Assembly: GCA_011884725.1 (NCBI GenBank)
Contig: GCA_011884725.1_3919.1
Length of the DNA stretch: 64,000 nucleotides
Reading direction: 5' to 3' (one strand)
Source: a phage
This document shows, piece after piece, positions 6,450-23,140 of the stretch (within the stretch, counting starts at the first letter, position 1; the number at the start of each line of letters is the position of its first letter). The notes under the pieces are model-generated. The model was not told the DNA's origin and searched no databases. It saw only the letters and a list, made by a program, of their open reading frames with translations. Both the position numbers and the translations under genes were made by a program.

Positions 6450-8010
6450 TATAAAGAGACTCTATACAGTCCCTTTCCTTTCCTTCCTAGAATCTATCCC
6501 ACTAATTCGATAGAGACTATCTCATACCTTAAAAAGCAATAACTCTATAGTCTACTCTATAACCTCTTATCAAATCAACTTAAATATAAGCCCATAACCC
6601 GAAAGGGAAGGGCAACCACTAAAACGCTCTATAAAGCTCTATAACAGCCTTATCAATCTAACTTAAGCAATCATATTAACCTACTCTAAAAAGCCCTTTA
6701 TAGAGCTTCCCAGAGCCTTAAAAGAATCTTATAAGGGTGTAAGCTTTATTATCTCGTTAGCTATCTTGTGAACTACTAAAAAGGGCTTGTTAGTGTCTTA
6801 AAAGTATGTTATAGGGGCTATAAAGTTACTTCAAAGTTACGTAAAAGGGGCTATAAAGTTACGTAAATGCTAGCCCCCTTAACATTTTCTTAACAATTTC
6901 TTAACAATCCCTACATAGTTATGCTTTTAAGGCACTTGTTAGAGACTTGTTAGCCCCTTGTTAAATCTCTGTTAAGACCACGTAAAAGCCTTGTAAGAGT
7001 CTTTAGCATAGCCTTTAAAGCCTCTGTAAAGCCCTATAAAGAGGTGTCTGTATAGTTGGGGTGTAATTACTAGGAAGAGACTTAAAAGAGCTTACAAGGA
7101 GCTATAGAGAGCTTTTAAGAGGGCTATTTAGAGAATCACTAAGAGGGAAAGGGAACGATAAGAAAAGAGATAGTGACCATGTTAATAGCTTGTTAAAAAG
7201 ATTAAACACTTGTTAGGAACTTGTTAATTATCCCTACAAAATAACTCTTTAAAATTAACTTGTTAGCTCTTGTTAGTCATCTGTTAAGATTCTGTAAAGC
7301 CTATGTATCAACTGTTAAGAAACTGTTACACCCTTGTTAGTTCTGTTAAGAATCTGTTAAGACCTCTGAAGAGATGTTAAGAAGATGTGAGAACTGTTAA
7401 GGAATTGTTAATGATATTTTAAAATTTTGCAAAGTACTTGTAAGGGAGTTGTTAAGGGCTACCAAGCAGATATACATCTTCTACAGATATTTTTCAGTCC
7501 CTTCAAAGACCCTAAAAAATGACTTGATAGTCCTATTTTATAAAAATTTTAAAATTCTGAATAATTACCTATACAGTCTTTTAAAAATACAGGTAATAAC
7601 AGGCTTATAAGATACCTTGTTAGTACCGTGTTAGACCTTGTGAGATAAGGTCTGTAAAGATATTCCTGTTAAGTTTGTTAAAACAGTCTATATAGAGGCT
7701 TAGTATTTCCTAGTGAACACCTATAGAGGGTAACATAGCTAACCTAGAGATTAAGAGGTGTATAGGAGCTTCTAAGAGGGTGTAGAGAGATGGTTAAGGT
7801 GATTGTATAGGTTGTTAAGAAGGCTTGTTAGAAGAGTGTTTAGAAGGGCTATACAGAGGGGCTATTAAGACCACTAGATAGATACTAAGATACTATATAG
7901 TACTATATAACTATATAGAGAGTAAGATTAAGAAGGTTGTTAAGAAGGGTAGATATTTTATTCACATATGATGGTGACCCAGCGGTTGGGACAACCGATA
8001 AATTTTATAA
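6450..8010. repeat. ORF-free region with dense phased short repeats (iteron-like)
   Basis: No ORF of 60 aa or more in any frame; more than 30 copies of (C)TTGTTA(A/G) and CTGTTAAG, several CTATAAAG, tandem GGGGCTATAAAGTTAC x2 (6817, 6846); spacing in 7261-7410 is multiples of about 10-11 bp. Confidence 0.75.
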
Positions 8011-16380: not shown

Positions 16381-17796
16381 ATGAGCGAATTATTTAAACA
16401 TGCGCACCTTCATGCAGGTCGAACTGAAAATGGTGCTGTAAACCATACTTCATCAATGTCTGCTCTTGTAGACTTTTACAAAGCTGCTGGTTCAAGCCGT
16501 AGCAATGTAGAAATCTTACCAGACCTGTTCTACAAAGCTTTGCGTGAGGATGTTGATGTTGCAGTTCGTATTTTACTGCATATGCGAGATGTACGAGAAG
16601 GTATGGGTGAGCGTAAAGCCTTCAGAACTGTTTTACTTCAAGCGATTGAAGACAAAGTTTTAGAGCCTACGCAGGTTCTTCGCATTATGGATAAGATTGC
16701 AGAACTTGGTCGTTTTGATGACTTCAAAATCTTTGTAGGTACTCGTTTCGAGACAGATGCCTTCAAGCATTTAGAAGCAGCATTACTAGACCCTGCAACA
16801 GCAGGTTTGGCAGCTAAGTGGTTACCACGAGTCAAACCACGTCATAAGCAGTTTGTAAAACGTTTCTGCAAGTTTGCCAACTTGAGCGAGAAAGAGTACC
16901 GCACACTGTTGTCTGCACTATCTGATACAGTTGAGCAAAAAATCTCTGCTAATGAGTTTGGTAAGATTGACTACAGTAAGATTCCTTCACTTGCTGCTGC
17001 ACGCTACCAAAAACTGTTTAACCGTAAAGATGGAGAGCGATACAAAGCTTACATCGAGTCCTTATCAAAGGGTGAGGCTAAGATTAATGCTGGTGCTGTT
17101 TACCCATACGATGTGATTAAATCTGTCAAGCATGGTAATGCAGATGTTGCTAATGAGCAGTGGAAAGCACTACCAAACTGGATGGCAGAAGGTGAAAACA
17201 TCTTGTGTATGTCTGATGTATCAAGTTCAATGTCTTGGGTGAATTTTGGCTCCATTACTGCTCTGGATATTGGTGTATCACTTGCCTTGTATGTAGCAGA
17301 ACGCAATACAGGCTGCTTTAAGAATGAGTTGATGGTTTATTCAACAAACCCTCACTTCATCGAACTGAGTGGTGATTTACGAAACCGTCATCGTCAGGTG
17401 ATGCGACACGTTGAATATGGCTCAACTAACTTACAAGCAGCTTTTGACCGCATTCTTGAAACAGGTAAAAGAAACAACTTGACTCAGAAAGATATGCCAA
17501 GTAAGCTTATCATCTTCTCCGATATGGAGTTCAATCAGGTTGATGGAGCTAACGGTCGTACAAACTTTGAAGCAATTCAGAGTAAGTACAAAAAAGCTGG
17601 ATATGAGATGCCACAACTGGTATTCTGGTACTTAGCAAACCGTAATGGTACTTGCGAAGTGTCTGTTAAGGATAACGGTGTAGCAATGGTATCTGGTTTC
17701 TCTCCAGCCACTTTAAAAGCTCTGCTTGGTGGTGAGAAGTTTGACCCAATCAGCGTAATGCTCAAAGCAGTAATGATTGACCGTTATATCTGGTAA
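16381..17796 (+). CDS. vWA-domain protein with helical N-domain (possible TROVE/Ro60-like architecture)
   Basis: 471 aa; C-terminal vWA with MIDAS-like DVSSSMS (DxSxS) and downstream T and D positions (IIFSDMEF); helical N-domain of about 270 aa; sits directly upstream of the tRNA array. Confidence 0.7.
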   Translation: MSELFKHAHLHAGRTENGAVNHTSSMSALVDFYKAAGSSRSNVEILPDLFYKALREDVDVAVRILLHMRDVREGMGERKAFRTVLLQAIEDKVLEPTQVLRIMDKIAELGRFDDFKIFVGTRFETDAFKHLEAALLDPATAGLAAKWLPRVKPRHKQFVKRFCKFANLSEKEYRTLLSALSDTVEQKISANEFGKIDYSKIPSLAAARYQKLFNRKDGERYKAYIESLSKGEAKINAGAVYPYDVIKSVKHGNADVANEQWKALPNWMAEGENILCMSDVSSSMSWVNFGSITALDIGVSLALYVAERNTGCFKNELMVYSTNPHFIELSGDLRNRHRQVMRHVEYGSTNLQAAFDRILETGKRNNLTQKDMPSKLIIFSDMEFNQVDGANGRTNFEAIQSKYKKAGYEMPQLVFWYLANRNGTCEVSVKDNGVAMVSGFSPATLKALLGGEKFDPISVMLKAVMIDRYIW

Positions 17797-17814: not shown

Positions 17815-17843
17815 TTGACAATGTGTTTAATACCCTTTAATAT
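17815..17843 (+). promoter_or_regulatory. promoter of tRNA array
   Basis: TTGACA (17815-17820), 17-nt spacer, TAATAT (17838-17843); a second TTGACA lies at 17906. Confidence 0.6.
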
Positions 17844-17961
17844 GTTCTACATAGAAACGAAATGAGAGCTTTTCTAAGATACTGAAAAATATTTTAAAAA
17901 AGTTCTTGACAACCACTAAAAAATAATGTTAAAGTGGTTACATAGAGTTTGAAAAGTTTAT

Positions 17962-18038
17962 CTCTGTTTAGCTCAGCTTGGTAGAGCGTTCCGTTTGGGG
18001 CGGTAAGGCCGGAGGTTCAAGTCCTCCAACAGAGACCA
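17962..18038 (+). tRNA. tRNA-Pro (anticodon TGG)
   Basis: 7-bp acceptor CTCTGTT/AACAGAG, T-arm GGAGGTTCAAGTCCTCC, anticodon loop TTTGGGG, encoded CCA. Confidence 0.75.
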
Positions 18039-18045
18039 AATTAAT

Positions 18046-18123
18046 GTTCCAGTAGACAAAATGGTAAAGTCACCACTCTTTCAAAGTGGATATCTGAGGG
18101 TTCAAATCCCTTCTGGAACGCCA
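18046..18123 (+). tRNA. tRNA-Glu (anticodon TTC)
   Basis: Acceptor GTTCCAG/CTGGAAC, anticodon stem CCACT/AGTGG, loop CTTTCAA, T-loop TTCAAAT, CCA. Confidence 0.75.
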
Positions 18124-18126
18124 GTT

Positions 18127-18205
18127 TTGACAGAAGACCAATTACAGCAAACTTAATCTTATTCATCTGAAGGTAAATCGGACAAAGAAGAGATTTGGTC
18201 TGGTC
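18127..18205 (+). ncRNA. inter-tRNA structured element E1
   Basis: CAGAAGACC-box, helix AGACCAA (18135-18141) / TTGGTCT (18195-18201), TTACAGCAAA box inside. Confidence 0.5.
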
Positions 18206-18214
18206 ATTAAGAAT

Positions 18215-18291
18215 TGCGGGTATAGAGAAAGGGCGTCTCACATGTCTCATTAGCATGGTATCGGCAGGTTCGACTCCTGCACCCGCCTCCA
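18215..18291 (+). tRNA. tRNA-Met-like (anticodon CAT) with 1:72 mismatch
   Basis: Anticodon stem CATGT/GCATG, loop CTCATTA, T-arm GCAGGTTCGACTCCTGC, 3' ACCCGCC-T-CCA; 5' end TGCGGGT leaves position 1 unpaired. Confidence 0.6.
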
Positions 18292-18294
18292 AAT

Positions 18295-18365
18295 TTACAG
18301 AAGACCGTTTACAGCAAAATTGAATGAAATTTTTAGCGGAAAAATTGAAAGATACGGTCTGGTAA
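18295..18365 (+). ncRNA. inter-tRNA structured element E2
   Basis: Helix AGACCGT (18302-18308) / ACGGTCT (18354-18360); compensatory to E1; TTACAGCAAAA box. Confidence 0.5.
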
Positions 18366-18375
18366 TACTAAACAT

Positions 18376-18449
18376 GGTTAGGAAGCACATAAGGTATGTG
18401 CGGTCGCCTGTTAAGCGAATGGCACAGGGTTCGAATCCCTGACTAACCG
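18376..18449 (+). tRNA. tRNA-Asn (anticodon GTT)
   Basis: Acceptor GGTTAGG, D-stem GCAC/GTGC, anticodon loop CTGTTAA, T-arm CAGGGTTCGAATCCCTG; no encoded CCA. Confidence 0.65.
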
Positions 18450-18461
18450 CAAAATTGAAAT

Positions 18462-18549
18462 GTGTCGTTATCCCGTAGATGGTAGCGGTGGGGACTGTAA
18501 ATCCCTTGTCATTGAGACTCGGTAGGTTCGACTCCTACACGGCACACCA
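18462..18549 (+). tRNA. tRNA-Tyr (anticodon GTA), long variable arm
   Basis: Acceptor GTGTCGT/ACGGCAC, anticodon loop CTGTAAA, long variable arm, T-arm GTAGGTTCGACTCCTAC, CCA. Confidence 0.7.
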
Positions 18550-18554
18550 ATAAA

Positions 18555-18631
18555 GGCTATGTAGTTTAACTGGAGAAAATACTCCCCTGTCACGGGAGAT
18601 GATGTGAGTTCAAGTCTCATCGTAGCCGCCA
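18555..18631 (+). tRNA. tRNA-Asp (anticodon GTC)
   Basis: Acceptor GGCTATG/CGTAGCC, anticodon stem CTCCC/GGGAG, loop CTGTCAC, T-loop TTCAAGT, CCA. Confidence 0.75.
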
Positions 18632-18685
18632 AATTATAATAAGTATTTCAAAATGATGTTTTGAGAGGGCTATTTAGCCCCTCCC

Positions 18686-18716
18686 TTAAAGAGTTCTTAC
18701 GAGTATTCTTTAAAGG
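18686..18716 (+). ncRNA. hairpin with conserved TTCTTACGAG loop, copy 1
   Basis: TTAAAGAGTTCTTACGAGTATTCTTTAAAGG; second copy at 22027-22056 has a different but still complementary stem. Confidence 0.45.
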
Positions 18717-18795
18717 AGCAGAAGACCAAATACAGCAAGAATGTATGATATTTTCAAGCCAATCCAATTTTGAAAAAATTTAAAACTTGGTCTGG
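18717..18795 (+). ncRNA. inter-tRNA structured element E3
   Basis: CAGAAGACC box, helix AGACCAA (18723-18729) / TTGGTCT (18787-18793), ATACAGCAAG box. Confidence 0.5.
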
Positions 18796-18804
18796 CTCAA
18801 CAAA

Positions 18805-18939
18805 TTTACAGAAGACCGTTTACAGCAAAACTTAAACAATCTATTTCTCGGTAAAGAAAAGGCGAAGGTTCGATTCCTTCACTCGGCAGATGTCGAGTTG
18901 GTGTAATGGTAGCACTTAAGATGATAAACAACGGTCTGG
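18805..18939 (+). ncRNA. element E4 enclosing a tRNA-like module
   Basis: Helix AGACCGTT (18813-18820) / AACGGTCT (18930-18937); inside: T-arm GAAGGTTCGATTCCTTC, hairpin ACTCGGC-AGAT-GTCGAGT, D-arm-like GTGTAATGGTAGCAC. The order is 3'-half before 5'-half. Confidence 0.45.
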
Positions 18940-18940
18940 T

Positions 18941-19084
18941 AATTATCTTTGTAGATAAGTTATTAAGCTTACCTGTGAGTATGCGACCACAAAGGGTGAA
19001 AGGGTAAATTCTAGATTTAAACCCAAAAAGGCACATCGCTACAGACCTTAAGCAAGTCTGGGTAGCTTATCTACAAAGATAATT
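18941..19084 (+). ncRNA. structured RNA closed by a 19-bp perfect helix
   Basis: AATTATCTTTGTAGATAAG (18941-18959) is the exact reverse complement of CTTATCTACAAAGATAATT (19066-19084); inner hairpins include CAGAC/GTCTG. Confidence 0.5.
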
Positions 19085-19088
19085 TAAT

Positions 19089-19164
19089 GGAAGTGTAGCA
19101 GAATGGTGATGCGGCAGACTTTTAATCTGACAGGCGATGGGTTCGAATCCCTCCACTTCTACCA
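19089..19164 (+). tRNA. tRNA-Lys (anticodon TTT)
   Basis: Acceptor GGAAGTG/CACTTCT (G1.U72), anticodon loop CTTTTAA, T-loop TTCGAAT (weak T-stem), CCA. Confidence 0.65.
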
Positions 19165-19168
19165 ATAT

Positions 19169-19245
19169 GGTTCAGTCGCAGATAAGGTAATGCAAGGGTC
19201 TCATAAGCCCTATGAATGTGGGTTCGATTCCCATCTGAACCTCCA
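19169..19245 (+). tRNA. tRNA with CAT anticodon (elongator Met or Ile2-type)
   Basis: Acceptor GGTTCAG/CTGAACC fully paired, anticodon stem AGGGT/GCCCT, loop CTCATAA, T-loop TTCGATT, CCA. Confidence 0.65.
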
Positions 19246-19246
19246 A

Positions 19247-19322
19247 GCTGGTATAGTTAAGAAGGTTATAACACTCCCCTGATAAGGGAACATCGGTGGT
19301 TCGATTCCACCTACCAGTACCA
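19247..19322 (+). tRNA. tRNA-Ile (anticodon GAT)
   Basis: Acceptor GCTGGTA/TACCAGT, anticodon loop CTGATAA, T-arm GGTGGTTCGATTCCACC, CCA. Confidence 0.7.
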
Positions 19323-19337
19323 ATTTCAATAAAGTTG

Positions 19338-19366
19338 TTGACATTGAGATGTGACTACTTTATAGT
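19338..19366 (+). promoter_or_regulatory. internal promoter within tRNA array
   Basis: TTGACA (19338-19343), 17-nt spacer, TATAGT (19361-19366). Confidence 0.6.
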
Positions 19367-19568
19367 AACCTTAGTTTTCGTTGCGTAGCGTCTATTTTGC
19401 AAATTTAAAATAAATGCAAACGACAATGTTTTTCTGGCAGTAGCTTGATAGGCTAAACACCAGTGAGGTCTTCCAATCCCTCATCAAAGAATTTGGCGTA
19501 CTCGCCCACGGTATGATTAATAAGGTGGGCATCTTTAAGGGCTTTCTAAGAGAGTCTTTAAAGATAAT

Positions 19569-19645
19569 GCACCCTTAGTTCAATTGGATAGAGCAACGGT
19601 CTTCTAAATCGTTAGTTACAGGTTCGAATCCTGTAGGGTGTACCA
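19569..19645 (+). tRNA. tRNA-Arg (anticodon TCT)
   Basis: Acceptor GCACCCT/AGGGTGT, D-arm TAGTTCAATTGGATAGAGC, anticodon loop CTTCTAA, T-loop TTCGAAT, CCA. Confidence 0.75.
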
Positions 19646-19787
19646 AATAGTTAGCAGATTACTTAGACGGCCTTAGCGGGTCTTCCTGTAGGGAGGTGGT
19701 CTGTATCTCATGTTTTCCAGAACATGTAAATAATCTGAGAAGAAGCTTGACAGTGTTGAGATAACAGGGTAAGCTTCGAATTATAAT

Positions 19788-19870
19788 ATGGGACGATGTT
19801 AAGACTCTAAGGCATGAGCAACGGCCTCCAAAACCGTTTCAAAGGGGTTCAACTCCTCCGTCCCATGCCA
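19788..19870 (+). tRNA. atypical tRNA (anticodon probably CCA, Trp?)
   Basis: Acceptor ATGGGAC/GTCCCAT, T-loop TTCAACT, CCA; anticodon stem AACGG/CCGTT encloses 9 nt (CCTCCAAAA); D region is 4-8 nt longer than usual. Confidence 0.45.
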
Positions 19871-19883
19871 AAGTCTTATTAGG

Positions 19884-19971
19884 GGTAGGTAGCGGCTAAT
19901 GGTAGCCAAACTGTCTTGAAAACAGTTGCCACTGTAGAGATACGGTGAGGGTTCGACTCCTTTACTTACCG
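19884..19971 (+). tRNA. tRNA-Ser (anticodon TGA), long variable arm
   Basis: Acceptor GGTAGGT/ACTTACC, anticodon stem ACTGT/ACAGT, loop CTTGAAA, long variable arm, T-loop TTCGACT. Confidence 0.65.
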
Positions 19972-20126
19972 CCTAATAAGATTTACTCCGTCCATGCTTG
20001 TTCGCATTGTCGGTTTATCCCTCGTGTATTGTCGTACACTGTCAAAGCACCTAGTAGGTGTCACGGAGAAGAGATAATATCAAGCTCTCCAAAGGTTCTA
20101 GTCACCGGATTAAACAAGACTATGCA

Positions 20127-20151
20127 AAGACCTATTTAGGTCTTTTTAGAG
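20127..20151 (+). terminator. intrinsic terminator inside tRNA array
   Basis: AAAGACC-TATTTA-GGTCTTT followed by TTTAG. Confidence 0.5.
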
Positions 20152-20227
20152 GGCTTCTAAGGTTATTAGTCGCTTGTTGTGGAACCTTGTTGCTTAGGTT
20201 CTTAGAAGTTCTCTAAAAAGATTTAAT

Positions 20228-20305
20228 GGGAGATTGACGGTAATTGGTAAACCTACCATCCTTAGAAGTTGGTGTTTGAGGGTTCGAATCCCTTGTCTCC
20301 TACCA
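20228..20305 (+). tRNA. tRNA, class I shape, anticodon TAG (Leu?)
   Basis: Acceptor GGGAGAT/GTCTCCT, anticodon loop CTTAGAA, 5-nt variable loop, T-loop TTCGAAT, A73, CCA. Confidence 0.5.
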
Positions 20306-20312
20306 AATTAAT

Positions 20313-20388
20313 GCAGGTGTAGCAAAATGGTTATGCGGCTGACTCTTAATCAGTAAGACGATGGGTTCAATTCCCTCCACCTGTACCA
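20313..20388 (+). tRNA. tRNA-Lys (anticodon CTT)
   Basis: Acceptor GCAGGTG/CACCTGT, anticodon stem GCTGA/TCAGT, loop CTCTTAA, T-loop TTCAATT, CCA. Confidence 0.6.
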
Positions 20389-20394
20389 AACATT

Positions 20395-20470
20395 GGGGAT
20401 GTAGTTTACATGGTTAAAACATAAGTTTTGCAAACTTAAGTACAGGGTTCAATTCCCTGCTTCTCCACCA
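20395..20470 (+). tRNA. tRNA-Cys (anticodon GCA)
   Basis: Anticodon stem AAGTT/AACTT, loop TTGCAAA, T-arm CAGGGTTCAATTCCCTG, CCA. Confidence 0.65.
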
Positions 20471-20476
20471 ATTAGT

Positions 20477-20551
20477 GCATCCATAGTTTAAACGGGAAAA
20501 TTACAGTCTTCCAAACTGAGGTTGAGGGTTCGATTCCCTCTGGATGCTCCA
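20477..20551 (+). tRNA. tRNA-Gly (anticodon TCC)
   Basis: Acceptor GCATCCA/TGGATGC, anticodon loop CTTCCAA, T-loop TTCGATT, CCA. Confidence 0.65.
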
Positions 20552-20557
20552 AACAAT

Positions 20558-20634
20558 GCTGCTTTCGTATAATTGGCTATTACACATCCCTTGTAAGGAT
20601 GGAAATGCAGGTTCGAGTCCTGTGAGCAGCACCA
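20558..20634 (+). tRNA. tRNA-Thr (anticodon TGT)
   Basis: Acceptor GCTGCTT/GAGCAGC, anticodon stem CATCC/GGATG, loop CTTGTAA, T-loop TTCGAGT, CCA. Confidence 0.7.
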
Positions 20635-20635
20635 A

Positions 20636-20730
20636 TTCAGAGGTCAAGTGAAAGACCGCTTTGAGTCAACTGAAGACCGTAACAAATACCACGGAGTTGA
20701 GTTAGCGGCACAACTTCAGACCTCTTTCAT
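20636..20730 (+). ncRNA. structured spacer element between tRNA-Thr and tRNA-Val
   Basis: Closing helix CAGAGGTC (20638-20645) / GACCTCTT (20722-20729); contains a GAAGACCGT box as in E2/E4; no T-loop. Confidence 0.4.
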
Positions 20731-20805
20731 ACTCGCTTAGTTTATATGGTAAAACATCACCCTTACAAGATGAAGAAAAAGGTTCAAGTCCTTTAGTGAG
20801 TACCA
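20731..20805 (+). tRNA. tRNA-Val (anticodon TAC)
   Basis: Acceptor ACTCGCT/AGTGAGT, anticodon loop CTTACAA, T-arm AAAGGTTCAAGTCCTTT, CCA. Confidence 0.6.
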
Positions 20806-20806
20806 T

Positions 20807-20884
20807 GTTCCAGTATCCCAATTGGCAGAGGATGCAAGCTCAAACCTTGTATTAGTGACGGTTCGAATCCGTCTTGGAACACCA
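20807..20884 (+). tRNA. tRNA, class I shape, anticodon CAA (Leu?)
   Basis: Acceptor GTTCCAG/TTGGAAC, anticodon stem GCAAG/CTTGT, loop CTCAAAC, T-arm GACGGTTCGAATCCGTC, A73, CCA. Confidence 0.5.
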
Positions 20885-20889
20885 ATTTT

Positions 20890-20965
20890 GCAGGATTAGT
20901 TCAAATGGAAAGAGCAACAGTCTACGAAGCTGTTAATAGGGGTTCGAATCCCTTATCCTGCGCCA
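20890..20965 (+). tRNA. tRNA-Arg (anticodon ACG)
   Basis: Acceptor GCAGGAT/ATCCTGC, D-stem GTTC/GAGC, anticodon stem ACAGT/GCTGT, loop CTACGAA, T-loop TTCGAAT, CCA. Confidence 0.75.
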
Positions 20966-20982
20966 GATAAAAAGGTGATACT

Positions 20983-21225
20983 ATGCAAACATTAACAGTA
21001 GTTGAACATGAAAACTGTGAGAGTATTGAGTTTGTCAGGGTCATTGGTGTTGAACACCACATTTTCTTAAAAGTGGGATACTTATGTGACCCCGCTAGAG
21101 TAGAAAGATTTATACGTGATTGTTTTGGTGGTAGACATCTGAAGAGTGTTATTTTTGAGACAGTTTTACCAGAAGGTTTAGAAACGAATAATAACATTTA
21201 CCTCCTTACGAGGATTAGACAATGA
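20983..21225 (+). CDS. hypothetical protein embedded in tRNA array
   Basis: 80-aa ORF; RBS AAAGGTGA 7 nt upstream of ATG. Confidence 0.5.
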   Translation: MQTLTVVEHENCESIEFVRVIGVEHHIFLKVGYLCDPARVERFIRDCFGGRHLKSVIFETVLPEGLETNNNIYLLTRIRQ

Positions 21226-21779
21226 GATACTTAAAGTATGCTTCATGGATTTTCTTAGCTTTGTTAGAGCCATTTGCAGCAATCTTAGCAGTTATCTTAG
21301 CACCTTTTGTAGTTCCATTCTACAGTGAGAAGAAAGGACACTTACCTTTCGGGTTCAGATGGATGGAGACATATGACAACCCAATTGATGGTGATGAAGG
21401 TCACGTTAAAAGATGGGCTAATATTAGATGGATTGGTAAACTAGGTGTCTACATGCAAAGAGTCGGATGGCTCTGGAGAAACAAAGCTTATAACTTCTCT
21501 TACCATGTATTAGGAAGAGATGTAAGAGATGTTACTAAGTGGAAAGGTAATATCAACGTAAGTTCTAACCCTGAAGATAATCAGACTGGTTATCTCCTAA
21601 TGTGGAACAGTAATGCTTGGGGATTATTCGCTTTTATCCCATCAATTAAAGTCTTCGGTAAACAGTTTTACTGGAGAATTTATGTTGGATGGAAACTTAA
21701 AAGTGTTGTCCCAGAAGAAAGAGCATTCTCAAGGGAAAGAGTTATGTTGGCATTCTTTATTCATCCACTGAGAAAGTAA
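21222..21779 (+). CDS. hypothetical membrane protein embedded in tRNA array
   Basis: 185 aa; N-terminal TM segment (WIFLALLEPFAAILAVILAPFVVPF); start overlaps previous stop; RBS GAGGA. Confidence 0.6.
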   Translation: MRYLKYASWIFLALLEPFAAILAVILAPFVVPFYSEKKGHLPFGFRWMETYDNPIDGDEGHVKRWANIRWIGKLGVYMQRVGWLWRNKAYNFSYHVLGRDVRDVTKWKGNINVSSNPEDNQTGYLLMWNSNAWGLFAFIPSIKVFGKQFYWRIYVGWKLKSVVPEERAFSRERVMLAFFIHPLRK

Positions 21780-21787
21780 AGATTTAA

Positions 21788-21863
21788 AGGGGATTAGTTT
21801 ACAAGGTTAAAACCTCGGTCTTTGAAATCGAAGAAGTTGGTTCAATTCCAACATCCCCCGCCA
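21788..21863 (+). tRNA. tRNA-Gln (anticodon TTG)
   Basis: Anticodon stem TCGGT/ATCGA, loop CTTTGAA, T-arm GTTGGTTCAATTCCAAC, 3' ATCCCCC-G-CCA; position 1 (A) unpaired with C72. Confidence 0.6.
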
Positions 21864-21865
21864 AT

Positions 21866-21944
21866 GCTCCATTACTCCAATTGGCAGAGAGGCCAGACTT
21901 AAAATCTGTGTTATGTATCGGTTCGAATCCGATATGGAGTACCA
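21866..21944 (+). tRNA. tRNA, class I shape, anticodon TAA (Leu?)
   Basis: Acceptor GCTCCAT/ATGGAGT, anticodon loop CTTAAAA, T-arm ATCGGTTCGAATCCGAT, A73, CCA. Confidence 0.5.
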
Positions 21945-21949
21945 AATTT

Positions 21950-22025
21950 AGCGGTATAGCATAACTGGCAATGCAGCAGTCTCTGAAGCTGTCCTATTAA
22001 GGTTCAAATCCTTATGCCGCTGCCA
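21950..22025 (+). tRNA. tRNA-Gln (anticodon CTG)
   Basis: Acceptor AGCGGTA/TGCCGCT, D-stem GCAT/ATGC, anticodon stem GCAGT/GCTGT, loop CTCTGAA, T-loop TTCAAAT, CCA. Confidence 0.6.
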
Positions 22026-22026
22026 C

Positions 22027-22056
22027 TTCTAAGGATTCTTACGAGAGTCCTTAAAT
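22027..22056 (+). ncRNA. hairpin with conserved TTCTTACGAG loop, copy 2
   Basis: TTCTAAGGATTCTTACGAGAGTCCTTAAATG; stem TAAGGATTC/GAGTCCTTA. Confidence 0.45.
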
Positions 22057-22132
22057 GTGGCCTTATCATAAATGGTAATGACCCATGCTGTGAACATGGT
22101 CTATACGGGTTCAAATCCCGTAGGTCACCCCA
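22057..22132 (+). tRNA. tRNA-His (anticodon GTG)
   Basis: Acceptor GTGGCCT/AGGTCAC, anticodon stem CCATG/CATGG, loop CTGTGAA, T-arm ACGGGTTCAAATCCCGT, CCA. Confidence 0.7.
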
Positions 22133-22138
22133 ATTTAT

Positions 22139-22214
22139 AGTCCAAGTAGCTTATATGGTTAAAGCGCGTGTCTGAAAAACATGAGAAGAGGGTTCAAATC
22201 CCACTGGACTACCA
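22139..22214 (+). tRNA. tRNA-Phe (anticodon GAA)
   Basis: Acceptor AGTCCAA/CTGGACT, anticodon stem CGTGT/ACATG, loop CTGAAAA, T-loop TTCAAAT (short T-stem), CCA. Confidence 0.6.
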
Positions 22215-22230
22215 ATTTCAAAGGTGCTTA

Positions 22231-22965
22231 ATGAAAGAGATGACAGAACAAGGTAAGGAGATTTTCAATCTCTTAAAAACCGGTAAAGGGTTTTCTAACC
22301 CCCTTATTACTGGTGCAGCAGTTCTCGGTGGAACCGTAGCTGCCTCTACATCACTTGTAAGCTCTATTAGCTCTGTATCAGACCCTACAGTAAAGGATAA
22401 GCTTGTTGCTGCTGGACTTACAACAGTTCTGCTTAACAGCTTTACCACGAGTCTGACAAGCACTACATCAACTACCAAAACACTAACAGATTACGGTCAA
22501 AAGTCCATTGATGAGTTTTCATCACGTATGCAGGTAGCAAAAGGTTACTCTAATGTTATGGGTGCAGCAGGTGAACAAGTTGGCTGTACACCATTTAGTG
22601 GTATTATGGGTGTTGCTACAGAGTATGGTCAAAAAACTATTGATACGATTAACAGTGTACTAGATAGTGTTAATGGTGTGTTAAGTGACTTACAAGATGC
22701 TATTGACAAAGGTCTTGATACTATTTCTGATTTAGCTGAGCAAGCTGTTAGTAAGATTAATGAAGGTATTTCAAAAATTACAGCTTATGCAGATGAAGTT
22801 GTGCAGATGATTGAAGAAGAAGCTGCTCTTATTGCAGAGTACCTTAAAACGAATATCAATGGGTTCTTAGCAGGTATCTTACCAGACTGGTTTGATGATG
22901 CTTGTAAAACTGGTGTAATTGACACTATTGCAACACCAGAAATGAAGAACGCATTACAGAAATAA
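22231..22965 (+). CDS. hypothetical protein (Ser/Thr-rich N-half, helical C-half)
   Basis: Listed ORF starts at 22168 inside tRNA-Phe; in-frame ATG at 22231 with RBS AAAGG chosen. Confidence 0.55.
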   Translation: MKEMTEQGKEIFNLLKTGKGFSNPLITGAAVLGGTVAASTSLVSSISSVSDPTVKDKLVAAGLTTVLLNSFTTSLTSTTSTTKTLTDYGQKSIDEFSSRMQVAKGYSNVMGAAGEQVGCTPFSGIMGVATEYGQKTIDTINSVLDSVNGVLSDLQDAIDKGLDTISDLAEQAVSKINEGISKITAYADEVVQMIEEEAALIAEYLKTNINGFLAGILPDWFDDACKTGVIDTIATPEMKNALQK

Positions 22966-22967
22966 AT

Positions 22968-23060
22968 GGAAGATTAACCCTAAAAGGTAAGGGAGCAGTT
23001 TGCTAAACTGCCAGTAGCTGAGAAATCGGTGTACCAGTTCAAGTCTGGTATCTTCCTCCA
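22968..23060 (+). tRNA. tRNA-Ser (anticodon GCT), long variable arm
   Basis: Acceptor GGAAGAT/ATCTTCC, D-stem CCC/GGG, anticodon stem GCAGT/ACTGC, loop TTGCTAA, long variable arm, T-arm ACCAGTTCAAGTCTGGT, CCA. Confidence 0.7.
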
Positions 23061-23064
23061 ATTT

Positions 23065-23140
23065 GAATCCGTGACAGAAACGGCTATGTGCCTGTCTGCA
23101 AAACAGGTTTATAAGGGTTCGAGTCCCTTCGGATTCTCCA
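23065..23140 (+). tRNA. tRNA with GCA anticodon (second Cys-like)
   Basis: Acceptor GAATCCG/CGGATTC, anticodon stem CCTGT/ACAGG, loop CTGCAAA, T-arm AAGGGTTCGAGTCCCTT, CCA; atypical D-arm. Confidence 0.5.

Follow-up and report, generated by a model that had tools for sequence, protein, structure and literature searches.

The 64,000-nucleotide (nt) stretch of phage DNA analyzed here (contig GCA_011884725.1_3919.1, referred to as the window) contains an RNA gene at 18941-19084, a 144-nt element closed by a long terminal helix (P1) and holding conserved motifs and a covarying hairpin in its interior. These internal features, which were missed by the original prediction made from the letters of the window, distinguish an RNA gene from a mere duplex. 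The element founds a so far undescribed family of RNAs in Ounavirinae-type phages and is very probably a functional RNA of the plus strand. It is located inside an array of 26 transfer RNA (tRNA) genes that runs from 17962 to 23140 on the plus strand, 4 nt before tRNA-Lys(UUU).

A perfect inverted repeat closes the element

The original prediction described a perfect 19-base pair (bp) duplex at the ends of the element. Both arms, AATTATCTTTGTAGATAAG (18941-18959) and CTTATCTACAAAGATAATT (19066-19084), lie where it placed them and their complementarity is perfect. A repeat finder lengthens the arms to 22 nt at 95%, and RNAfold extends P1 to 24 bp (18941-18964 with 19061-19084) by way of three added G.U pairs. 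The plus strand fold of the element has an energy of -47.8 kcal/mol with z = -6.2, and none of 200 shuffled sequences folds as well; the minus strand fold has an energy of -43.8 kcal/mol. A k-mer scan of the whole window (39% G+C) shows that the element is the sole inverted repeat of at least 14 nt with a loop of up to 200 nt, and 40 dinucleotide shuffles of the window yielded no inverted repeat of at least 16 nt. These results bear out the claim that the duplex is far beyond chance. The further hairpins predicted inside the duplex are present, and the location given for the element, between a neighboring RNA termed E4 (described below) and tRNA-Lys (19089-19164), is correct. The parts of the element and its 3' neighbor are as follows.

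18941..18964, plus strand: P1 5' strand; nt 1-19 form the perfect duplex and nt 20-24 pair by G.U and A-U
18967..18984, plus strand: P2 hairpin; stem GCUUA/UAUGC with one U.U, loop CCUGUGAG
18985..19041, plus strand: variable central arm or arms, including H2
19002-19024, plus strand: H2 hairpin, GGGUAAAU-UCUAG-AUUUAAACCC; the UCUAG loop is common to the two sequence types defined below
19042..19060, plus strand: H3 hairpin; 5-bp stem CAGAC/GUCUG closed by C-G, 9-nt loop CUUAAGCAA
19061..19084, plus strand: P1 3' strand, from the repeat finder, fold, covariation and duplex energies
19085..19088, plus strand: 4-nt spacer UAAU from P1 to the tRNA, from the sequence and ARAGORN
19089..19164, plus strand: tRNA-Lys(UUU), called by ARAGORN and matched by the Rfam tRNA model at 54 bits

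P1 keeps its pairing while its sequence turns over

The window belongs to Felixounavirus, and a 451-nt stretch around the element has matches in about 250 records of Felix O1-like phages. Taken by itself, the element is shared by Felix O1 at 100% identity and by 190 phage records, Bas63 (JohannRWettstein) among them, at an identity of at least 94%. This sequence, that of the window, is type A; type B is found in some Felixounaviruses (e.g. fKMPT1), Mooglevirus and Suspvirus. The two types share their ends, the UCUAG loop and the 3' hairpin, and the middle is replaced.

Covariation was measured across four clades in alignment A2, which consists of 16 distinct variants and one 63% lineage. The proposed pairs form in 99.2% of its cells and 10 pairs are changed on both sides, levels of pairing and covariation score that none of 500 shuffles matches. 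Pairing falls to 29-44% in slid controls in which the partners are moved by 1-3 columns. Compensatory double changes occur at eight P1 pairs among Felixounavirus, Mooglevirus, Suspvirus and lineage L160 (L numbers designate phages and contigs).

Remoter homologues were sought on contigs fetched via homologues of the upstream protein (53-64% identical). The element is also present in Yersinia phage P778 and in nine uncultured contigs (L160, L161, L162, L164, L167 and L258-L261), the distant lineages being single assemblies from public runs, and the homologues total 14 Ounavirinae-type lineages. The size of the element stays at 140-180 nt across phages with syntenic Ro60-like proteins that are only 53-57% identical. 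P1 is 22-29 bp long in each of 13 lineages, with 1-7 G.U pairs per lineage, and 29 bp long in Hafnia phage Zyzzx, the fourteenth; in the remoter lineages it is broken up by 1-3-nt internal loops. Ungapped arm identity between lineages is just 40%, showing that the P1 sequence has turned over. The family-wide MAFFT alignments A3 and A6 put P1 out of register, so P1 in the distant lineages was judged by duplex energies rather than by column counts. For the first and last 30 nt in 13 lineages, cognate arms pair with a mean of -30.2 kcal/mol compared with -11.6 kcal/mol (sd 4.6) for non-cognate arms, and within-sequence arm shuffles give -8 to -12 kcal/mol (0/500). The check proposed with the original prediction, conservation and covariation in related phages, therefore shows a helix whose structure is kept in 14 lineages while its sequence changes.

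A covariance model (R1) was built from close relatives only; its E-values come from a shortened calibration and are rough. R1 recovers L261 (33.3 bits, E = 1.8e-5), L259 (33.1 bits, E = 2e-5) and Zyzzx (26.4 bits, E = 6.7e-4), and all three matches fall exactly where P1 and H3 had been seen by eye. There is no second copy within the window by R1. Rfam 15 has no match overlapping 18941-19084, whether 6 kb are searched at E up to 1 or 1 kb at E up to 10, and a search for host mimicry returned zero matches in 5,426 Escherichia coli genomes. Two pattern scans of IMG/VR were run: the first pattern was too loose and gave mostly chance matches, and the second returned Felixounavirus contigs only, plus four chance matches. 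Nothing was found on this element in the literature.

Conserved motifs lie inside P1

H3 directly adjoins the 3' strand of P1 and has the loop consensus C-Y-U-N-N-R-Y-A-A. Across the 14 lineages, 97% of H3 cells are paired, double changes occur at four of the five pairs, and the covariation score is 0.96 compared with 0.31 in shuffles (0/500); slid controls pair at 18-41%. The middle positions of the loop differ between lineages (AAG, UAG, AUG, GAA, GCA). The idea that H3 shows a lysine codon (AAG) to the tRNA-Lys anticodon was rejected because this triplet varies.

P2 holds the conserved block GAGUAUGC (18977-18984) with the family consensus GRGUAKGC, and G37, G39 and T40 are invariant in alignment A3. 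By inspection, the block comprises the 3' end of the P2 loop, which ends in GRGU, and the 3' strand of P2. The P2 stem, read by eye, varies by lineage (GCCU/AGGC, GAUCCU/AGGAUU, AGUAU/AUGCU). The central arm is swapped between types A and B, differs again in the remoter lineages and has no consensus. A kissing or tertiary pairing of the P2-loop GRG with the H3-loop CYU was considered and discarded: L261, which combines GAG with CCU, does not fit the apparent A-U/G-C covariation, and RNAduplex found no consistent pairing of the two loops across lineages.

R1 distinguishes the two strands of the window, scoring 154.6 bits on the plus strand compared with 46.9 bits on the minus strand. The minimum free energy of the plus strand is the stronger in 10 of 11 lineages and is 0.1 kcal/mol weaker in L164. 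The G.U pairs point to an RNA of the plus strand because they would be mismatches in a DNA cruciform or on the opposite strand. There is no conserved open reading frame (ORF) across the element in relatives.

The element resides in tRNA arrays

The element always lies within a tRNA array and on the tRNA strand. A tRNA begins 0-11 nt after P1 in 13 of the 14 lineages. Of these 13, 11 have Lys(UUU) there, L261 has Ile(GAU) and Zyzzx has Arg(UCU). L258 has a hairpin of roughly 30 nt between the element and tRNA-Lys(CUU). On the 5' side, tRNA-Ala ends 1-11 nt before P1 in L261, L259 and L167. A strict functional tie to tRNA-Lys(UUU) is broken in L261, L258 and Zyzzx and was rejected. Because the identity of the downstream tRNA changes, the tie is to residence in a tRNA array with a tRNA on the 3' side, and not to lysine.

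Two promoter-like sites precede the array.

17815-17843 and 17906-17935 (17815..17935), plus strand: two sigma70-type promoter-like sites before tRNA-Pro, from a consensus scan with 10/12 matches each

On their sequence, these sites are the likely start of the transcript carrying the element, and the scan found no plus strand terminator-like site between them and the element. The element itself was considered as an intrinsic terminator; the scan gave no plus strand site, and P1 is followed by UAAUGG. A further strong promoter-like site lies at 19338. A leader RNA (19380-19568, plus strand) lies 3' of it, has weak, sub-threshold Rfam tmRNA matches and ends in a hairpin of roughly 15 bp (about 19527-19568) just before tRNA-Arg. 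This hairpin and P1 share the 3' tail AAAGAUAAU(N)G.

Several other features were observed in this and related arrays. A probable tRNA-Trp(CCA) that ARAGORN did not call is located at about 19790-19864 on the plus strand, with a weak match to the Rfam tRNA clan, the anticodon region ACGGC-CUCCAAA-ACCGU and the T arm GGGGUUCAACUCC; for every amino acid but Trp, the array has a called tRNA. At 18669-18691 (plus strand), between tRNA-Asp and a hairpin RNA termed E3, there is a G+C-rich hairpin, GAGGGCUAUUUAGCCCCUC, which lacks a clear U tract and is conserved in L160 as a GGAGGGACU...AGUCCCUCC-like sequence. Yersinia phage vB_YenM_P778 (L157) carries two long tRNA-like RNAs not called by ARAGORN (6511-6650 and 6735-6890), with a 7-bp acceptor stem (one with G3:U70), a canonical T arm and a 60-80-nt insert in place of the anticodon arm. 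In Erwinia phage phiEa21-4 (L264), a ~177-nt RNA (6925-7101) fills the gap between tRNA-Ala and tRNA-Met and is clamped by a 13-bp perfect inverted repeat that reaches about 24 bp in the fold. Since it has no R1 match and lacks the H3 motif, this RNA may be analogous to the element or else very distantly related to it; there is no Ro60-like gene at the locus. A polynucleotide kinase is encoded in Bas63 (L262, 22555-23250) and Zyzzx (L266, 37298-37981), and no RNA ligase is annotated in the phage records read; this combination may be relevant to tRNA repair where a phage has its own tRNA-Lys(UUU).

A proposed processing model for the element

We propose that the element would be transcribed from the sigma70-type promoters at 17815/17906 within a polycistronic precursor of tRNAs and Y RNAs, from which host enzymes would excise it. 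RNase P would free the 3' side as it generates the 5' end of the downstream tRNA; in the window, the RNase P site of tRNA-Lys(UUU) would thus set the 3' boundary. P1, a two-turn helix, would be a substrate for host RNase III, and in Felix O1-type phages the cut in P1 would also detach the abutting YrlA-like RNA. The excised core would stay as a stable RNA whose GRGU and CYUNNRYAA loops would contact a partner other than the Ro60-like protein. Taken whole, as a stable structured RNA from a tRNA precursor with P1 cut by RNase III and a functional core, this model is tentative and falls a little short of being probable. The likelihood of the RNase III cut in P1 is evenly balanced, and a function of the core beyond that of a spacer is somewhat probable.

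Two helical turns are the minimal substrate length for E. coli RNase III. The suggestion in the original prediction that the helix is long enough for this enzyme agrees with the 24 bp in the window and the 22-29 bp across lineages. RNase III is favored because a helix of at least 22 bp is kept in 14 of 14 lineages despite a free sequence, which exceeds the needs of end protection or folding, and because the element of the Felix O1 group abuts the YrlA-like RNA with no single-stranded spacer for another endonuclease. Known RNase III stalks include the stems on either side of 16S and 23S rRNA in rrn operons and T7 early-mRNA sites such as R1.1. Like P1, such stalks are in general helices of at least two turns, sometimes with a small internal loop, that flank a functional RNA in a polycistronic transcript, and their length is conserved while their sequence is not. 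Unlike them, the element encloses just about 100 nt, and its cleavage is only inferred. RNase P could carry out part of the release because a tRNA follows the helix within 0-11 nt.

Several points weigh against this model. The literature yielded no transcript, end-mapping or cleavage data for the region. The tRNA-processing enzymes alone could release the element because tRNAs flank it closely in several lineages, and the role of P1 could be limited to blocking exonucleases or clamping the fold. The 1-3-nt internal loops of P1 in distant lineages are compatible with RNase III but are not specific support for it. The case for an elaborate function is weakened because the center is not conserved and only a small part of the core is constrained.

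Possible alternative functions of the element

The element could be a mere processing spacer, an RNase III site or tRNA-folding insulator that splits the precursor and encloses functionless sequence. P1 is the most constant feature of the family, the central 50-60 nt are exchanged as a whole between types A and B and also in further lineages, the RNAs that the element abuts need ends, and the shorter hairpin before tRNA-Arg has the same 3' tail. A spacer would have no use for H3, with its near-invariant 9-nt loop and covarying stem, nor for the conserved GRGUAKGC block or the constant size of 140-180 nt. These superfluous features make a simple spacer unlikely.

A cis-acting element of the tRNA operon, either a leader that controls the maturation or level of the downstream tRNA or an antitermination RNA like put, would account for a position that is always within the array and on its tRNA strand, and for the close downstream tRNA, which is 0-11 nt away in 13 of the 14 lineages and Lys(UUU) in 11 of these. 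The downstream tRNA varies, however, being Ile-GAU in L261, Lys-CUU in L258 and Arg-UCU in Zyzzx, so that the lysine link is largely conserved gene order, and another strong promoter follows at 19338. The put RNA of phage HK022 is about 70 nt long, consists of two hairpins without a long clamp and acts in cis on antitermination. It is not known to have any sequence or structural resemblance to the element, and the analogy is confined to the function of a structured phage RNA that possibly acts in cis in a long transcript. A cis-acting role is considered distinctly unlikely.

Ribozymes and aptamers typically have conserved unpaired nucleotides where several helices meet, and anticodon loops begin with C32-U33 and often end with A38. 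The 5-bp stem of H3 resembles an anticodon stem, its loop starts with C-Y-U and ends with A-A, and the type B loop reads CUUU..., like tRNA-Lys(UUU). A role in host conflict, as an RNA mimic or a catalytic RNA, was therefore weighed: H3 could be an anticodon-stem-loop-like decoy for a defense nuclease that cleaves tRNA, the long helix a sponge for a factor that binds double-stranded RNA (dsRNA), or the core a self-cleaving ribozyme. The element also sits among tRNAs that phages are thought to carry against tRNA-targeting defenses (PMC11482910). The H3 loop has 9 nt rather than 7, and its middle positions vary, so there is no constant 'anticodon'. Known ribozyme and riboswitch models have no match at E up to 10, no pairing between loops proved consistent, and the decoy and ribozyme readings are without positive support. 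This set of roles in host conflict is judged very improbable. The broader idea of a new class of phage effector RNA that acts on the tRNA economy of the infected cell, for which reason it would have to reside in tRNA arrays, for example as a decoy, or of a new small ribozyme that shapes the precursor, is a long shot. If the decoy were true, the expanded anticodon-like H3 and the dsRNA handle of P1 would titrate a host defense or processing enzyme that cleaves tRNA or recognizes dsRNA and so protect the phage tRNAs.

The neighboring Ro60-like gene and its candidate Y RNAs

A 471-residue ORF with DUF2828 and DUF7788 occupies 16381-17796 on the plus strand, and the element begins 1.1 kb downstream of it. 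Its AlphaFold model has a predicted local distance difference test (pLDDT) score of 87 and a predicted template modeling (pTM) score of 0.87. The best 13 Protein Data Bank (PDB) matches of the model are all Ro60 (Xenopus, Deinococcus Rsr, human and Thermus phage phiLo; E = 1.5e-7 to 8e-5, TM = 0.36-0.66). Homologues are found in 710 phage records, including a mycobacteriophage 'Ro-like RNA binding protein'. The ORF is the counterpart of Bas63 gp130, which is reported to be Ro60-like and to counter the Ppl defense; the same preprint merely speculated that some Bas63 'tRNA genes' could be Y RNAs (PMC11482910). Four RNAs of the array share a stem.

18806..18942, plus strand: E4, YrlA-type Y RNA; V hairpin 18844-18859, T arm 18864-18880, acceptor-like stem 18881-18898, D arm 18901-18915
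18128-18206, 18295-18365 and 18716-18798, plus strand: E1-E3, hairpin RNAs that share the E4 stem

E4 has a Ro-type closing stem, a canonical T arm and an acceptor-like stem capped by the loop AGAU, and the order of its arms matches the definition of YrlA-type Y RNAs (Chen et al. 2014, PMC4201824). In Sf13, Michonne, L161, L162 and L164, changes in its acceptor-like stem are fully compensated. E4 is unannotated in the records seen and has no Rfam match, and its identity as a YrlA-type Y RNA beside a Ro60-like gene was missed by the original prediction. The 3' outer helix of E4 (GUAA, 18939-18942) overlaps the first 2 nt of P1. E4 is part of the context and not of the element because the element occurs without an E4-type neighbor in L160 and Zyzzx. 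The motif shared by E1-E4 is 5' NNNC-AGA-AGACCnn-UWW-ACAGCAA with the 3' strand nnGGUCU-G-GNNN, and the stems covary between copies. The outer helices of E1-E3 also covary (UGAC/GUCA, UUAC/GUAA, GAGC/GCUC), and these three RNAs are candidate YrlB-like Y RNAs. A hidden Markov model (HMM) of the E 5' motif matches E1-E4 and their relatives with E from 7e-6 to 5e-3. The motif is present one to four times in every relative that carries Ro60, only in the tRNA array, and is absent from the whole Zyzzx genome and from the 12-kb phiEa21-4 locus examined. The element was also considered as an enlarged member of the E group, given the E-like 5' arm in L161, and this was rejected by an HMM E-value of 21 at L161 and no match in the window.

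The element might then be part of a Ro60/Y-RNA ribonucleoprotein, as an extra Y RNA or a dedicated substrate of the Ro60-like protein. As with the Y RNAs (YrlA/YrlB, PMC4201824; Yrl1/2 of Thermus phage phiLo, PMC12135203), a Ro60-like gene lies within 4 kb on the same strand and a long stem of the 5' and 3' ends encloses a structured module; in addition, the element directly abuts a YrlA-type RNA. Unlike the Y RNAs, the element lacks T and D arms as well as a Ro-binding motif, be it GNCGAAN0-1G or of the local ACAGAAG type. The Rfam models of tRNA and Y RNA do not match 18941-19084 at E up to 10, there is no T-loop, and the E 5' motif HMM does not match the element. The free sequence of P1 means that there is no constant protein-binding site in the stem. 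The reading is largely refuted by Zyzzx (Ounavirinae), which has the element and neither a Ro60-like gene nor Y-like RNAs. The Zyzzx homologue has the 29-bp P1 and an H3 identical to that of type B, contains GAGUUAGGC and is located just upstream of tRNA-Arg(UCU), and a tblastn search of the complete genome for a Ro60-like gene gave nothing at E up to 1. Conversely, 80 metagenomic loci with distant Ro60-like genes (39-45% identity) have neither the element nor the E motif. The retention of the element in Zyzzx without Ro60 shows that it is independent of the Ro60/Y system and that its partner is not the phage Ro60-like protein; the true Y-RNA relatives in the window are E1-E4. Membership of the element in the ribonucleoprotein is correspondingly remote.

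A DNA feature, be it a cruciform palindrome, a miniature inverted-repeat transposable element (MITE) with 19-bp terminal repeats or a small minus strand gene (Felix O1 ORF94, Bas63 0138), is almost certainly not the explanation, even though the inverted repeat is perfect, TAAT stands on both sides (18940-18943 and 19085-19088) and small minus strand coding sequences are annotated here in GenBank records. The MITE idea fails: each genome has only one copy, and no empty site was seen in the roughly 250 related records that carry type A or B. The flanking TAAT is no sign of a target-site duplication because the left TAAT is the end of the stem of the neighboring Y-like RNA and also ends E2. The G.U pairs of every lineage speak against a cruciform, as noted above. 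The minus strand frames comprise ORF94 of Felix O1 (L177), a 76-residue ORF annotated here, and bas63_0137 and bas63_0138 of Bas63. They are annotated over E4 and the 144-nt RNA, their open frames are lost in relatives, which rules out the minus strand ORF reading, and on this sequence evidence ORF94, bas63_0137 and bas63_0138 are probably mis-annotations of RNA genes.

Relation to T4 stable RNAs and implications

The stable RNAs of the T4 tRNA cluster are the closest analogues of the element. Species 1 (rnaC, 139 nt) and species 2 (rnaD, 119 nt) are likewise non-tRNA RNAs in a phage tRNA cluster, and they and the element are alike in their size of about 120-140 nt, their position on the tRNA strand adjoining tRNAs and their unassigned function. 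There is no significant sequence similarity (blastn-short, best E = 2), and homology was rejected because the shared words GAGUAG and AACGUUC are neither significant nor collinear. T4 rnaC differs in having a genuine T arm (CCGGGUUCGAAUCCCGG) and a short closing stem, without a 22-29-bp clamp or an H3-type loop. In work of the 1970s, T4 species 1 RNA was reportedly a substrate of RNase III in vitro.

Felix O1 is one of the classical phages for typing Salmonella, and therapy and biocontrol make use of its relatives, among them Bas63 and wV8. The region has so far been annotated only as tRNAs and spurious small ORFs. A conserved, covarying RNA outside Rfam shows that phage tRNA arrays hold more than tRNAs, and it bears on the old question of the role of the non-tRNA 'stable RNAs' in phage tRNA clusters. 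Bas63, for which a genome-wide knockout method already exists, makes the element a tractable model. The Ro60-like protein and the Y-RNA candidates are a possibly weightier by-product of the analysis because they turn the speculation about gp130 into concrete, testable RNAs. Should RNase III cut P1, the element would also illustrate the release of abutting non-tRNA RNAs from such precursors.

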